A stretch of 5,191 nucleotides of DNA, taken from IMG/VR virus record IMGVR_UViG_2541047787_000001; one strand, written 5' to 3'. The number at the start of each line of letters is the position of its first letter. Positions within the stretch are counted from its first letter, which is position 1. Source of the DNA: a virus (Duplodnaviria; Heunggongvirae; Uroviricota; Caudoviricetes). The translations under genes and the position numbers were made by a program. Shown here in pieces: positions 1 through 5,191 of this stretch. The notes under the pieces are model-generated. The model saw nothing but the letters and a program-made list of their open reading frames with translations. It did no database searches and was not told the DNA's origin.

Positions 1-191
1 CCCAGCGTGTCCGTAAACTCATAACGGTATTTCACGTTAATCCCGTTCAGATTATCGCTGCCGGGAGCGTTCGTACGGGCATGAAGATACCCTGCGCTCA
101 GTGTGGCCTGCTGCTCAGACGCCCATGCAGGCGCACCGGATACGGCCAGACAGATGGCTGCGGACAAAATGGCTGCACAAACTTTACGCAT
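1..191 (-). CDS. lom: Lom-family outer membrane protein (Ail/Lom/OmpX/PagC family), 5' partial CDS; start codon at 189..191, gene runs off the window's left edge
   Basis: Reverse-complement translation from the ATG at 189..191 gives MRKVCAAILSAAICLAVSGAPAWASEQQATLSAGYLHARTNAPGSDNLNGINVKYRYEFTDTLG..., which closely matches the N-terminus of lambda Lom as I recall it. It has a typical Sec signal peptide (hydrophobic core, A-W-A cleavage motif). An SD-like GAGAGG lies about 6 nt upstream of the ATG on the minus strand. Its position immediately downstream of J is the same as in lambda. This partial ORF is absent from the supplied ORF track, presumably because it is truncated by the window edge. 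Confidence 0.85.
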   Translation of the reverse strand, partial: MRKVCAAILSAAICLAVSGAPAWASEQQATLSAGYLHARTNAPGSDNLNGINVKYRYEFTDTL

Positions 192-212
192 AATTACCTC
201 TCGCTTTTCTGC

Positions 213-240
213 AATAAAAAAGGCGCCATTTCTGGCGCCC
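213..240 (-). terminator. Rho-independent terminator downstream of J (tJ-like): GC-rich hairpin followed by a U-tract
   Basis: On the minus strand the transcript reads GGCGCCA-GAAA-UGGCGCC followed by UUUUUUAUU. That is a perfect 7-bp GC-rich stem (+ strand 222..228 pairing with 233..239), a GNRA-type tetraloop (229..232) and a run of six U then AUU (213..221). It begins about 18 nt after the J stop codon (259..261). Confidence 0.7.
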
Positions 241-258
241 GTATATGGGTTATAAAAT

Positions 259-3200
259 TCAGCTGATACTGATGCCTGCGGTGGCTTTCTTCATCACCAC
301 AACCAGCAAATCGCTGATACTTGCTGTGGGATACCAGTCATTTACCAGCCATGCTGACACCGAAAACTCCAGCGTCATGTGGCCGTGACCAGCTGGCATA
401 TCAATAACACCACTGTAAATCAGCGTATTATCCAGCGCGGTACGGTTATAAATTTCAGCACCATTTTTCTTCACTATCAGGCGGCATGACGAATAAATAT
501 CGTTATTCTCCCGCTCATGTTTAGCGCCGCAGAATGCCACCGCTGGAATAACAATTTGCCTGTCAAAAGGCTGATCGTCATAAATCCTGACGGTAATGGT
601 CCCTGATGGCCACCGCTCCGGTGCCCGGGAGTCCCGCGGGAAAGCCTTACCCACTGTTTTGACAATATCGCCTTCAATCTGATTGGCTGACAGTTTCCCC
701 TTAATCTGACAGTTCTCATTAATCGTGACGTTGTTGAGCGTCCCGGAGTTCGCATTCACACTGCCACTGATATCCGCATTTTTAGCAGTCAGCTTTCCGT
801 CCGGTGTCAGGGAAAATGCCGGTGGATTTCCACCGCTGGTAATGGTGGGGGCCGTCAGATACTTCAGGAACACGTCGTTCATGAATATCTGATCGCCCTG
901 ACCAACAAACATCGGTTTTGTGTTGCCATTCGCAGGATTAACCATCGCAATCCTGTCCGCCGCCAGCAGCACCTGACTCTGCATGCCGTCAGGGGTGTTC
1001 TCAATACCGGCACCAATACCCGCGATATAAAGGCGTCCGTCCTGCATCTGCTGCAGCTTCACAGCCCACATGCTGTTCAGGTTATTATTTGTATCAACCT
1101 GAACCTTCTGTATCTGCTGAATTGCCGCACTCTGGTCTTCCAGTTTCTTATTGACGGTCTGCGTGATTTCATTGCTGACATCCGTAATGGACGTCCTGAT
1201 TTCAGCCAGGTCAGGCGCAAGCTGACCGTTATCAATCTGCGTCCACAGCTCCTGAGCCAGATGGGTTTTCCCTATCTCGCCTTTGAAAAAATCCAGATAG
1301 CCGGATGCATCATCACTCGGCTGACCAACAGCCTCCACGAATGCCGATTTGCCAACGGTGTTCACACTGCGAACGTAAAAATAATAATCATGGCCCGGCC
1401 TGATATTGATACTGGCGGCTATCCAGTACAGCGCCGTGCCAAGATAGCGTGCTGTGGTTTCAACCTGCCTGATATCCGCAATCCGCTTTTCCGAGAACCA
1501 GAACTCAAACTGTACCGTCGGATCATAAACCGCAAGATGCGGCGTGGCGGTTATCTGAAAATAGCCCGGTGTCAGCTCAATCCGAGACGGCGCTGCCGGT
1601 GCGGCAATCCGGAACGATACCGATGCCGGATCGCCCTGCTGTCCCCACGCATTTACCGCCCGGACTGTCAGCCTGTAGTTCCCCAGCGCCAGTTGTGTGA
1701 AGCGGTATGTGGTTTCCGTCGTCCTGGCTGTGCTGACCAGCCGCTCACTGCCGTCATCCGCTGTCACGGTCAGACGGAGCAGGAAGCTCACGCCCTTCAC
1801 CACCTTCGGTGTGTCCCAGCGCGCCAGCACCTGATATTCCCCGCTGTCTGCAGTGACTTCGGCGGTCAGATGCTGCACTGCTGGCGGCGTGACACCATTC
1901 ACCGTGCCGCTCTGGTCACCGTCAAAGTGCGCCCCGTTATCCACGATGGCCTCTTTTTCCGGCACATGCTGCACGGCAGTGATGGCATACGTGCCGTCAT
2001 CGTTCTCACGGATACTCACACAGCGGAACAGGCGCTGACGCAGCGTCGGCAACTTCAGCCCCCACACGCTGTATCCGGCAACGCCGTCAGGAACACGGCT
2101 CACTTTTACCTTCACGCCGTCGGTGACGGACTGAACCTCCACGCTGACCGGATTGCCACTTCCGTCAACCAGGCTTATCAGCGTGGTACCGGAGGATGGT
2201 AGCGTGATTTCACGGTCGAGCGTCAGCGTCCGGGTCTGGCTGTTTACCGCCAGCACGCGCCCGCCGATGCTGATACCGGCATAGTCATCATCACAGATTT
2301 CAATAACATCGCCCGGCACATGGCGAAGCCCTTCTGCGCCCACGCTGAAGTCCACGGTCTGCGTTTCCAGCAGCTCTGTTTTAATCAGCCACAGCCCGGC
2401 GCGGTGTGCCTGCCCCCGGCTGGTACAGCCAAAAGCATCCATCTTCGTGACGTTACGACCGTAACGGGCAATAGCCTGCGTATCCTCCACAAGCTCTGTC
2501 GCCGTCTCCCAGCCGTTGTTCGGGTCAATCCAGTTCACCTCAACGGCATTATGGCGGTCTTTCAGGGCGCTGAAGCTGTAGCGGAACGGCGCGCCATCAT
2601 CCGGCATCACCACATTACTGCGGTTATAGGTCCACACCTTATCCGACGGTCGGTCCTGCACGAATGTCAGCGTCTGCCCGTTCCATACCGGCATACAGCG
2701 CATCGCCGAGCAGAAATCACTGAGCACATCCCACGCCTTTCGCTGTGTGGTCAGGTACGCATTACAGGCGATGCGCGGCTCCGTGCCGCCAAAGCCGTCC
2801 GGCACCGACTGGTCGCAGTACTGGCCGATGACATACAGCGCCCATTTATCCACATCCGCCGCACCAAGACGTTTTCCCATGCCGTAGCGCGGATGGGTCA
2901 GCATATCCCACAGACACCAGGCCGGGTTGTTGCTGTATGCCGGTTTAAACGTTCCGTCCCAGATACCGCTGTATTGCCGCGTCTGCGGGTTATAATTCGA
3001 CGGCACCTGCAGAATACGCCCGCGCAGATGATAATTACGGCTCACCTGCTGGCTGCCGAACTGCTCCGAATCCACCTGTACGCCGACCAGTGCCGTGTTC
3101 GGGTAGCCCTGTTTCACATCGATGATTTCGGTGTATGACGACCAGAGCGTTTTGTTCTGCAACTGGTCTGTGGTGCTGTCCGGCGTCATCCTGCGCATCC

Positions 3201-3738
3201 GGATATTGAACGGGCGCGGCGGCAGGTTACCCACCACCACCGAGGCCAGATACTGTGAGGTGGTTTTGCCTTTAATGGTGATGTCTTTTTCCGTCACCCA
3301 GCCACCGTTACGTTGTATCTGAACCAGCAGGCGGACTTCCGACGGATTCCTGTCCCCCTTTGAGGTGGTTTCCACCAGTGCCTGCACGCCGAAGGTAAAA
3401 CGCAGTCGGTCAATGTTTGCCGACGTGATGGTCCGGGTGATCGGCGTGTCGTATTTCACTTCCGTACCCAGCACCGCCTCGGAGCCGGAGGATTCAAATC
3501 CCTCCGGCGGTGTCTGCTCCTGCTCACCGGCCCGGAACACCACCGTGACGCCGGAGATGTTGGTATTCCCCTCACTGTCCAGCACCGGCGTACTGTTCAG
3601 CAGCACGCTTTTTAATCCATCCACCGGACCTTCAACCGGCCCTTCGCTGATGGCATCGATCACACTCAGCAGCTGCGTGGACTTCAGGTTGTCCTTCGCT
3701 TCGCGCGGGGTATGCCCCTTACTGCTGCCTTTACCCAT
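259..3738 (-). CDS. J: Central tail fibre / host specificity protein J (tail tip protein), 1159 aa
   Basis: The 3480-nt ORF translates to [26 protein letters not shown]... and is recognisably lambda gpJ across its N-terminal ~800 residues as I recall that sequence. The central part (about 1324..1902) contains tandem fibronectin-III-like segments (e.g. ...[23 protein letters not shown]..., ...[16 protein letters not shown]...). The C-terminal ~350 residues diverge from lambda (see findings). An SD GGAG sits at 3747..3750 (minus-strand sense), 8 nt upstream of the ATG at 3736..3738. Gene order L-K-I-J-lom supports the call. Confidence 0.97.
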
Positions 3739-3746
3739 TCGTCATG

Positions 3747-3750
3747 CTCC
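3747..3750 (-). promoter_or_regulatory. Shine-Dalgarno (GGAG) for J
   Basis: The minus-strand sequence upstream of the J start is ...UAUGGAGCAUGACGA-AUG: GGAG followed by an 8-nt spacer and the ATG. Confidence 0.55.
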
Positions 3751-3760
3751 ATAAACGATA

Positions 3761-3780
3761 AAACCGCCCGGAGGCGGTTT
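3761..3780 (-). promoter_or_regulatory. I-J intergenic RNA hairpin (AAACCGCC-UCCG-GGCGGUUU) followed by a U-rich tract; possible partial terminator/attenuator or mRNA-stabilising structure
   Basis: The inverted repeat is read directly from the sequence: an 8-bp stem (5 GC pairs plus 3 AU pairs) with a 4-nt loop, followed on the minus strand by UAUCGUUUAU and then the J SD. It lies in the 60-nt gap between the I stop (3799..3801) and the J start (3738). Confidence 0.35.
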
Positions 3781-3798
3781 CACATAAAACGTTTTTCA

Positions 3799-4440
3799 TC
3801 AGCGACCAATCACCACAACCTGACCACCATCCCCTTCGTCTGCCGTGCTGATCTCCTGAGAAACCACGCGTGACCCCACGCGCATTTCACCGTACAGAAC
3901 AGGCAGAACATTGCCCTGGGCAACCATGTTATCCAGTGAAGAGAAATAGGTGTTCTGTTTGCCGTTATCCGTTGTCTGTGTGCGGGGGGTTCTGGCTTTC
4001 GGTGCCAGCATCTGCGCCACACCACCGAGCACCATACTGGCACCGAGAGAAAACAGCAGATTACTCGCCATAATTCCTACCCCCGGCATCCATATAGCAA
4101 CCGCCATAACAGCCGCCCCCAGCACAGCCTGAAACACACCGCCACTTTTGGCTCCCGCCAGACGCGGCACGATATGGATCACAGCACCATTTGCCAGCGG
4201 TTCATTAAGACGGGCTGATAATTCCGTTTCACCTGTATCACGCCCGGCAATGCGTACCTGATACCAGCCGTCGCTCAGCTTCTGACGAAACACCGGGATC
4301 TGCATGGCCAGCGCCCGGATGGCTTCGGCCCCCGTTTTCACACGCAGATCGATGCGGCGGCCAAATCGTTGTAAATCCCCGTAAAGGCAGATGCGTGCCA
4401 TGCCTGGTGACGCCAGAGGGAGTGTGTGCGTCGCTGCCAT
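3799..4440 (-). CDS. I: Tail tip assembly protein I (N-terminal ubiquitin-like beta-grasp domain ending in Gly-Gly, then a hydrophobic Gly/Ala-rich segment and a conserved C-terminal region), 213 aa
   Basis: The translation MAATHTLPLASPGMARICLYGDLQRFGRRIDLRVKTGAEAIRAL...HIVPRLAGAKSGG...LFSLGASMVLGGVAQMLAPKARTPRTQTTDNGKQNTYFSSLDNMVAQGNVLPVLYGEMRVGSRVVSQEISTADEGDGGQVVVIGR matches lambda gpI as I recall it, with a diverged and shorter hydrophobic middle segment. The Gly100-Gly101 codons are at 4138..4143. An SD-like AGAGAGG lies about 11 nt upstream of the ATG at 4438..4440. The position between K and J is as in lambda. Confidence 0.92.
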   Translation of the reverse strand: MAATHTLPLASPGMARICLYGDLQRFGRRIDLRVKTGAEAIRALAMQIPVFRQKLSDGWYQVRIAGRDTGETELSARLNEPLANGAVIHIVPRLAGAKSGGVFQAVLGAAVMAVAIWMPGVGIMASNLLFSLGASMVLGGVAQMLAPKARTPRTQTTDNGKQNTYFSSLDNMVAQGNVLPVLYGEMRVGSRVVSQEISTADEGDGGQVVVIGR

Positions 4441-5081
4441 TTGTCGGTATACCTCTCTCGTTTGCTCAGTTGTTCAGGAATATGGTGCAGCAGCTCGCCG
4501 TCACCACAGTAAATGGCGGCATGATTCGGCACCGATGAACCAAAGCAGCACAGCAGCACATCGCCCGGTTGTGCTGATGACAACGGCACCTGATACAGCC
4601 CTGTGGCCTCCAGATTATCCAGATAGAGATTCTGGCCGTTACGCCACCAGTCATCCTCACGATGAAAGTCCGGCATCTCAATCCCCGCCAGATGATAAGC
4701 ATCCCGGAACAGCGTGTAACAGTCCGTCACCCCGTGCTCAAAGCGCCGCCCGGTAAGATGCGGCACACAGCGGAACTTGTGAATCGCCCTCCGGCAGACC
4801 AGCCACCACGGCAAATCACTCTGCACCTGCAGCCGCCGGTCGGCCTCACTCAGCCAGGGCAGACCACCGGGGTGACTGTGGACCAGCGAGACAATCTCAC
4901 CCTGCATTTCTGCCTGCAGCCAGTCCTCCGGAGCCATCCGGAAATAATCCTCCGGCTCACCGGAAATATTCACGCAGGGAAAATATCTTTCCCCCTCCGG
5001 CGTTCTCACCACGAAGCCGCACGACTCCGCTGGCGCACATCGCCGGGCGTGCGCCAGAATCGCTGATTCTGTCTCTGTCAT
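4338..5081 (-). CDS. K: Tail tip assembly protein K, two-domain: N-terminal JAB/MPN (JAMM) metallopeptidase-like domain plus C-terminal NlpC/P60-like cysteine peptidase domain, 247 aa
   Basis: The translation from the ATG at 5079..5081 is MTETESAILAHARRCAPAESCGFVV...LVHSHPGGLPWLSEAD...GVTDCYTLFRDAY...NHAAIYCGDGELLHHI.... The JAMM motif HxHx7Sx2D is at residues 68-81 (nt 4839..4880). The NlpC/P60-like region has Cys121 (nt 4719..4721) and His187/His199/His200 (4482..4487). The start lies 4 nt after the L stop codon. The supplied ORF track extends the ORF upstream to 5156, but that extension overlaps the L 3' end and precedes the conserved MTETES N-terminus, so 5081 is preferred. An alternative internal start exists at 4935..4937 (see findings). 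Confidence 0.88.
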   Translation of the reverse strand: MTETESAILAHARRCAPAESCGFVVRTPEGERYFPCVNISGEPEDYFRMAPEDWLQAEMQGEIVSLVHSHPGGLPWLSEADRRLQVQSDLPWWLVCRRAIHKFRCVPHLTGRRFEHGVTDCYTLFRDAYHLAGIEMPDFHREDDWWRNGQNLYLDNLEATGLYQVPLSSAQPGDVLLCCFGSSVPNHAAIYCGDGELLHHIPEQLSKRERYTDKWQRRTHSLWRHQAWHASAFTGIYNDLAAASICV

Positions 5082-5085
5082 GGGA

Positions 5086-5191
5086 TTACTGCGAAAGTTT
5101 GTTAATGGAAAGGAAGCCGCCAAAGTTGCCGACGTTATTGCGAAACTTACAGCCACTCAGGCATTTGCTGCATTTATCCTTCGTGATATCG
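5086..5191 (-). CDS. L: Tail tip protein L, 3' partial CDS (C-terminal 34 codons plus stop); cysteine-rich C-terminus consistent with the Fe-S-binding tail of lambda gpL
   Basis: Only one minus-strand frame is open across 5086..5190. It translates to ...DITKDKCSKCLSGCKFRNNVGNFGGFLSINKLSQ* with a TAA stop at 5086..5088. The cysteine cluster (CxxCxxxC) and the position immediately upstream of K match lambda L. It is absent from the supplied ORF track because it is truncated at the window edge. Confidence 0.8.
   Translation of the reverse strand, partial: DITKDKCSKCLSGCKFRNNVGNFGGFLSINKLSQ

Follow-up and report, generated by a model that had tools for sequence, protein, structure and literature searches.

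The tail-tip protein gpJ of phage lambda and its relatives has been known to be modular since a comparison of 1207 J homologues delimited a module, residues 960–1132, whose recombination is independent of the remainder of J (Maddamsetti et al., 2018). The phylogeny of this module is unlike that of the rest of the protein, and its lineages are defined by indels at positions 1012, 1048/9, 1077/8 and 1107. Similarly, the J proteins of lambda_2G7b and lambda_2H10 are more than 97% identical to that of lambda over 982 residues and 40–60% identical in the last 150, and the host ranges of these phages are distinct (Andrews and Fields). Recombination of lambda J with a prophage relic has also been seen in the laboratory, as previously published. 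Structures of the lambda tail (Ge & Wang, 2024), from which we take the domain names used here (helical shaft, central straight fibre and receptor-binding domain, RBD), show that four bottom loops of the lambda RBD enter LamB.

The closest experimentally characterized modules are those termed 1A2 and A8, which were fused to lambda J at residue 964 and whose chimeras deliver DNA without LamB and require OmpC (Brodel et al., 2024). Specifically, 1A2 delivers DNA into a lamB ompC double deletion only when OmpC is supplied from a plasmid. The two modules accept different sets of OmpC variants, jointly covering 21 of 23: A8 takes the OmpC of both K-12 and EDL933, while 1A2 takes that of EDL933 and not that of K-12. 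Small differences therefore matter in this system, as 1A2 discriminates between EDL933-type and K-12 OmpC. Such OmpC-using gpJ modules have already been put to use in engineering (Brodel et al., 2024), and the title of PDB entry 9wcb describes an open state in which A8 gpJ is bound to EDL933 OmpC.

The window, its tail-tip genes and their distribution

The window (the whole 5,191-nucleotide stretch of viral DNA that was analysed) contains the tail-tip region of a lambdoid prophage, encoded on the minus strand as are all features given below: the end of L, then K, I and J, and finally the first 63 codons of lom. The J gene (nt 259–3738) is an intact open reading frame of 1159 codons for the tail-tip or central tail fibre protein, and its product is identical to RefSeq WP_021535035.1, which bears the annotation gpJ in E. 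coli 14EC029. The lom-like gene for an outer-membrane protein (nt 1–191) is clipped by the window edge; its translation begins MRKVCAAILSAAICLAVSGAPAWA, and it is annotated as a member of the Ail/Lom family in the same strain. A terminator-like hairpin followed by a T run (nt 211–240) lies in the gap between J and lom, at the same post-J site that is annotated as a terminator in phage 21 and mEp460. Taken with the annotated context in 14EC029, the open reading frames of the window and the start of lom reproduce the gene order L-K-I-J-lom-stf of the lambdoid tail operon. J itself carries six Pfam families of lambda gpJ (Phage-tail_3, FNIII-A_GpJ, Ig_J, Ig_J_second, Phage_Tail_Tip and Ig_GpJ_C), each of which scores higher than its curated cut-off (E 1e-31 to 1e-43).

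Chromosomal prophages in several E. coli strains match the first 1400 bases of the window at 100% identity; that of 14EC029 occupies the Qin locus (with ydfJ split) and has a complete lambda-like set of head and tail genes. Matches to these 1400 bases occur in 4574 of 5426 complete E. coli genomes, and the receptor-binding module of this J is very common: of 243 matching phage records, 56 contain it at 90–95% protein identity, and individual protein clusters formed at 90% identity contain thousands of members.

Mosaic structure of J

We aligned the window J with lambda J (NC_001416, 15505..18903, 1132 aa) and scored identity per 50 residues. As the preliminary description had proposed, the N-terminal ~800 residues are nearly identical to lambda, at 96–100% over residues 1–750 and 90% over 751–800. 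Divergence does set in close to residue 806 (nt 1323), where it had been placed by eye: DNA identity falls from 0.93 over residues 781–800 to 0.82 over 801–820 and 0.58 over 821–840. From there on identity to lambda is anything but uniform, ranging by block from 28% to 98% over residues 801–1150. It is 44% for residues 801–850, 28% for 851–900 and 58% for 901–950, rises to 98% for 951–1000, and declines again through 58% (1001–1050) and 44% (1051–1100) to 34% (1101–1150), so that the last ~150 residues are strongly diverged, again as first described. The peptides quoted in that description all occur in the J translation.

Adjacent segments differ in their density of mismatches to lambda with Fisher P values of ~1e-10 to 1e-12. 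The alternation of conserved and diverged blocks noted earlier is thus borne out, with finer grain and more pieces than had been seen. We resolved these pieces using full J genes from ten alleles (lambda, phage 21, PhiR55_1, PPompW, 2G7b, mEp460, BP-4795, PhiR49_2, Stx2a_2499 and the window), with PhiR29_2 added to the DNA alignment for counts of mismatches by segment.

The N-terminal part (residues 1–800, nt 1339–3738) comprises the hub domains and two FNIII/Ig domains, and is of lambda type, with 97–98% amino acid identity to lambda, phage 21, PhiR55_1, 2G7b and mEp460. It is followed by a shaft block (residues ~801–951, nt 884–1338) that includes the alpha-helical shaft and the upper part of the central straight fibre and is of the phage 21 / PhiR55_1 type. 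Over nt 859–1338 there are 13 mismatches to PhiR55_1 and 17 to phage 21 in 480 positions, compared with 133 to lambda in 396, and agreement at individual sites remains PhiR55_1-like down to nt 892. The block is 28 residues longer than its lambda counterpart, the additional residues lying within the helical shaft at J ~836–866 (approximately nt 1141–1233), as judged from gaps in the aligned lambda row. A long single helix is predicted at J 842–899 by single-sequence AlphaFold2 (block-mean pLDDT ~67–88 there); overall confidence in this shaft model was 54, and we used its secondary structure alone, and cautiously. Shaft length differs between alleles, with that of PhiR49_2 exceeding lambda's by ~100 residues.

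Downstream of the shaft lies a conserved island (residues ~952–1028, nt 656–883) formed by the lower central straight fibre, a beta-prism, and the first strand of the RBD. At the DNA level the island is of the type found in PhiR29_2, a natural A8-type phage, and in lambda. Over nt 739–858 the window has no mismatch to PhiR29_2 in 120 positions, and 3, 5 and 14 mismatches to mEp460, lambda and PhiR55_1, respectively; PhiR29_2 is again closest over nt 634–738 (7 mismatches in 105, compared with 16 for PhiR55_1), and the top phage matches to nt 630–800 are PhiR29_2, 2H10 and Turner, at 95–97%. Site patterns switch at ~nt 892/883 and at 656/655. Contrasts between adjacent segments give Fisher P values of 3e-11 for PhiR29_2 and of 1.6e-4 and 3.7e-3 for PhiR55_1, the last of these (nt 634–738 against 262–633) being the weakest.

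An internal lambda-like block had previously been placed at nt 736–1071. This holds for ~nt 739–883 and fails upstream, where about 34% of the positions compared over nt 859–1338 differ from lambda. By their site and mismatch patterns, the segments show that 'lambda-like' is too simple a label for the island, which is a piece common to A8-type phages and lambda, with a shaft of phage 21 type on one side and an RBD of 1A2 type on the other. A reading of residues 926–1005 (dS 0.64 to lambda) as a stretch conserved only by purifying selection was likewise refined, as this stretch is heterogeneous: nt 739–858 match PhiR29_2 exactly and lambda almost so, while the sequence upstream of ~nt 884 is of PhiR55_1 type. 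The fusion point used for chimeric gpJ proteins, lambda G964, corresponds to G992 of the window (nt 763–765) and falls inside the island.

The three major parts of J (N-terminus, shaft and RBD) assort independently across the ten alleles. Phage 21 shares the N-terminus and shaft of the window (98%) and has a different RBD (62%), while 2G7b combines the short shaft of lambda (28% identical to that of the window) with an RBD of the window type (94%). Stx2a_2499 and PPompW also carry the window type of RBD (93–94%) behind a different N-terminus (66–80%), and the shaft of Stx2a_2499 is likewise unlike that of the window. One RBD type is therefore found, at 92–94% DNA identity, on unrelated shafts and N-termini.

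Silent divergence follows the same blocks: dS between the window and lambda is 0.12 for codons 1–400, 0.21 for 401–790, 0.87 for 791–925 and 0.64 for 926–1005, and is saturated in the RBD. Neither a uniform dS nor strict co-inheritance of blocks along J is observed, and the C-terminal module has a history distinct from that of the rest of the gene by block assortment, dS profile and breakpoint tests alike. These data bear directly on whether the C-terminus could have diverged in place, under rapid positive selection on host range and without exchange of DNA. Such selection on J residues 960–1132 is well documented, lambda evolves fast there in the laboratory (Maddamsetti et al., 2018), and dN/dS to lambda is indeed 0.40–0.42 in the diverged blocks, compared with 0.06–0.09 in the N-terminal part. 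However, rapid amino acid change would not saturate silent sites, and we reject selection in place on this ground; it also runs counter to the presence of the same RBD on unrelated shafts and N-termini, to the pairing of this shaft with another RBD, and to a perfect 120-nucleotide match to PhiR29_2 between two blocks unlike PhiR29_2, and we regard it as hardly credible. Since dS climbs to 0.87 in the shaft block and saturates in the RBD, and since the blocks are combined differently elsewhere, J is a product of recombination rather than of fast local evolution, and the recombinational exchange of a host-range module suggested in the preliminary description is upheld by the dS profile, the block assortment and the breakpoint statistics. 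Compared with relatives of its own type the RBD has a dS of ~0.23–0.31 and a dN/dS of 0.07–0.13, from which we conclude that the gene is intact and under purifying selection.

Base composition had also been put forward as a signature of exchange. The 3′ portion of J is indeed more AT-rich, with a GC content of 0.487 for residues 1006–1159 compared with 0.589 for residues 1–790 (z = −4.5), the lowest value for any 462-nt stretch in the first 2370 nt being 0.561. However, the C-terminal third loses GC and GC3 in all ten J alleles compared, lambda included (0.55), so that the shift is a property of such modules and not a mark of this allele. We therefore discard it as specific evidence of foreign origin; on its own it is a weak indicator of exchange.

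The receptor-binding domain and its probable receptor

The RBD (residues ~1028–1159, nt 262–655) is an Ig-like beta sandwich that matches Pfam family Ig_GpJ_C at residues 1029–1159 and belongs to the class of 1A2, PPompW and PhiR55_1, for which OmpC is the predicted receptor. Over nt 262–633 the window has 22–30 mismatches in 372 positions to PhiR55_1, PPompW and 2G7b, compared with 137 in 360 to PhiR29_2 and 171 in 371 to lambda. The last 131 amino acids match PhiR55_1 at 127 positions and PPompW at 123, while identity over residues 1041–1159 is 62% to phage 21 and 41% to lambda.

The DNA of the 1A2 and A8 modules was taken from the supplement of Brodel and colleagues, a machine-read PDF with errors, and was therefore compared using a frameshift-tolerant alignment, with the natural equivalents PPompW (for 1A2, error-free) and PhiR29_2 (for A8) as comparators. 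Residues 987–1159 of the window match the machine-read 1A2 at 150 of 167 scorable positions (89.8%) without indels, compared with 67.5% for the machine-read A8. Against PPompW the 173-residue module is identical at 160 positions, and 8 of the 13 substitutions are in the RBD proper. The machine-read 1A2 itself agrees with the PPompW J C-terminus at 163 of 167 scorable positions; the four mismatches are probably reading errors, as they are common to every comparator. PhiR29_2 differs from the PDB sequence of A8 at one position within the module.

Among PDB sequences the best match to J is A8 gpJ 713 (E 7e-127), followed by lambda gpJ at ~1e-105. The last 160 residues were modelled with AlphaFold2 (pLDDT 79.6), and comparison of the model with solved structures using Foldseek indicates that the fold is that of the solved RBDs of both A8 gpJ (9wcb/9wca, E ~1e-18, TM 0.75–0.77) and lambda gpJ (8xck/8xcj, TM 0.77–0.79). 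With the fold conserved, specificity must sit in the sequence, chiefly in the loops. Superposition on the lambda RBD, a comparison proposed in advance, thus succeeds for the fold, but at the two key host-range positions of lambda the window J has P1040 in place of S1012 and W1135 in place of D1107. The indel hot spots of Maddamsetti and colleagues coincide with the indels that separate four RBD classes (lambda, 1A2, phage 21/A8 and mEp460); relative to lambda, the window is free of indels at 1012, 1048/9 and 1077/8, and has a one-residue deletion in the 1107 loop. Four of the eight RBD differences from PPompW/1A2 (R1076K, N1078H, N1079T and D1134N) are located within or next to loops corresponding to the hot spots at lambda 1048/9 and 1107. 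Judging by the strand order of the model, we infer that the loops at R1076, N1078, N1079 and D1134 face the receptor, in which case they could adjust the choice among OmpC variants, and the substitutions at these positions are candidate determinants of that choice.

By analogy with the experimentally tested 1A2 chimera, to which the module is ~90–94% identical, the receptor of the window J is most likely OmpC and not LamB. This homology supports the earlier suggestion of a receptor other than LamB. We found no receptor data in the literature for natural phages with the window type of RBD (PhiR55_1, 640R1, mEp332 and 2G7b). The PhiR phages form the panel of lambda relatives in the SNIPE study, where dependence on ManYZ was tested and not outer-membrane receptors, and a preprint on receptor prediction for 255 coliphages covers the GpJ of Drexlerviridae, leaving out the lambda C-terminus as non-homologous.

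Two other assignments of the receptor deserve consideration. That the RBD still binds LamB or a variant of it might be argued from the model, which fits the lambda RBD no less closely than it fits A8, and from the lack of indels relative to lambda at three of the four hot spots. However, the sequence is well below half identical to lambda over residues 1041–1159, both key lambda residues are replaced, and a 94%-identical RBD (1A2/PPompW) functions in lamB-deleted cells and needs OmpC, so that we consider continued use of LamB very improbable. Recognition of a different outer-membrane protein, such as OmpF or some other porin, or of a different subset of OmpC variants from that of 1A2, is somewhat easier to entertain, and still improbable. 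The position of four of the eight RBD differences in or beside the putative bottom loops would agree with it, as would the differing acceptance of the 23 tested OmpC variants by 1A2 and A8 (Brodel et al., 2024) and the gain of OmpF by lambda with ~four substitutions (Maddamsetti et al., 2018). In contrast, at 94% RBD identity a switch to another receptor protein would be unusual, and the similarly small variation within the class (in PhiR55_1, 2G7b, Stx2a_2499 and PhiR49_2) fits tuning to OmpC polymorphism better. Through its eight differences in 131 RBD residues, the window J could thus accept OmpC variants unlike those of 1A2; use of another receptor is less likely.

We therefore favour, with good confidence, the interpretation that the window encodes a functional recombinant J from at least four sources, with a 1A2-class RBD that most likely uses OmpC. 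Homologous recombination would have assembled the protein from a lambda-type hub/FNIII body (residues 1–800), a phage 21/PhiR55_1 shaft (~801–951), an A8-type fibre segment (~952–1028) and a 1A2/PPompW RBD (~1028–1159). Structural constraint may hold the conserved fibre segment constant, and this segment would in turn provide the DNA homology for exchange of RBD modules among lambdoid phages and prophages. The three Ig-like domains of the J trimer would dock onto a trimeric porin, most likely OmpC given the homology to 1A2, and binding is assumed, as in lambda, to trigger rearrangement of the fibre and opening of the tip.

We also consider, as an unlikely though conceivable extension, that the window J is a natural hybrid of both OmpC-binding classes, in which an A8-type junction is joined at ~residue 1028 to a 1A2-type RBD, and that the substitutions at R1076, N1078, N1079 and D1134 would confer an altered OmpC spectrum relative to 1A2, for example one that includes K-12-type OmpC. 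If this were so, the crossover at ~residue 1028 would represent a second permissive fusion point in gpJ, 36 residues downstream of the current one. The allele and this crossover could in any case join libraries of gpJ chimeras for retargeting lambda-based DNA delivery particles.

Comparison with described J proteins

Every element of this J has been described before, and a swapped J module, while a correct description of it, is ordinary, its modularity having been published in 2018. What the window adds is one more prophage that confirms receptor change by a swap of ~130–170 C-terminal residues of J across a conserved fibre segment, and the placement of a very common E. coli prophage allele in the OmpC-using 1A2 class.

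Compared with lambda gpJ (P03749; PDB 8iyk, and 8xck and 8xcj with LamB), the window J has the same gene position (K-I-J-lom-stf), the same six Pfam domains, 97–98% identity over residues 1–790 and the same Ig-like RBD fold. The two proteins differ in the longer window shaft, which is 28% identical over residues 831–925, and in the RBD, lambda binding LamB where the window class is expected to bind OmpC. The J of PhiR55_1 (XSB43168.1) is the closest sequenced phage J overall, being also 1159 aa long, with a shaft of the same type and the near-identical RBD noted above; it is unlike the window in the island, where its mismatches over nt 739–858 and 634–738 contrast with a PhiR29_2-like sequence in the window.

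The A8 / phage 21 class (A8 gpJ in PDB 9wca, and 9wcb with OmpC; PhiR29_2; phage 21) has the same fold as the window RBD and shares its junction, as seen in the perfect PhiR29_2 match, but is distinguished by two of its loops, the one at lambda 1012 carrying a deletion and the one at 1048/9 an insertion. The 1A2 chimera, whose natural equivalent is the J of the O157:H7 prophage PPompW, has the same class of RBD and a module boundary in the same conserved island. It differs in that residues ~952–1028 of the window are of A8 type and not of 1A2 type, and in that the window shaft is long, whereas 1A2 keeps that of lambda; moreover, 1A2 has been tested experimentally, whereas the window J is known from its sequence. 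Finally, the 'specificity region' of Maddamsetti and colleagues corresponds to the diverged C-terminus of the window J, which represents the same kind of exchange, with the shaft as a second, independently exchanged block upstream.

Source prophage at the Qin locus

The window corresponds approximately to positions 20001-25191 of a prophage-bearing stretch (NZ_CP024141.1, 2419029-2460428) of the genome of Escherichia coli 14EC029. The source prophage occupies the Qin locus, where ydfJ is split, and is flanked by ydfK-pinQ-tfaQ on one side and by nohA-ynfO-ydfO-gnsB-cspI on the other. As complete lambda-like head and tail genes lie between nohA and tfaQ, the 14EC029 prophage seems to represent an undeleted form of the defective Qin prophage of K-12.

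The K reading frame and its overlap with I

On the minus strand, the K reading frame (window 4338-5156) is open for 272 codons, and a start at MTETES... would give a protein of 247 aa. In this version the C40 peptidase part would be preceded by a JAMM-like motif, HSHP...S..D. In contrast, lambda K is annotated in RefSeq at only 199 aa, and the same record leaves 148 bases without annotation between L and K. The I gene (window 3799-4440, minus strand) overlaps K by 103 bases, an arrangement shared with lambda (K, 14276-14875; I, 14773-15444).

Allelic variation in J and the J-lom junction

The helical shaft of the tail-tip protein J varies in length among alleles. Lambda, 2G7b and mEp460 have a short shaft, whereas those of the window, phage 21, PhiR55_1 and PPompW exceed it by 28 residues; in the window's J these extra residues fall at about 836-866 (window ~1141-1233). 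In phage PhiR49_2, whose J comprises 1232 aa (170-3868 of its locus, L009), the shaft is ~100 residues longer than that of lambda. The J gene of PhiR29_2 (3219-6615 of its locus, L010, minus strand) is annotated as two overlapping CDS, that is, as a split or frameshifted gene, even though E. coli C was used to propagate this phage. The C-terminal module of its J differs from the engineered, OmpC-using A8 module by a single residue.

In the gap that separates the stop codon of J from the start of lom, a terminator-like hairpin with an 8-bp stem, six of whose pairs are G-C, precedes a T run (window 211-240, minus strand); terminators are annotated at the matching position in phage 21 and mEp460.
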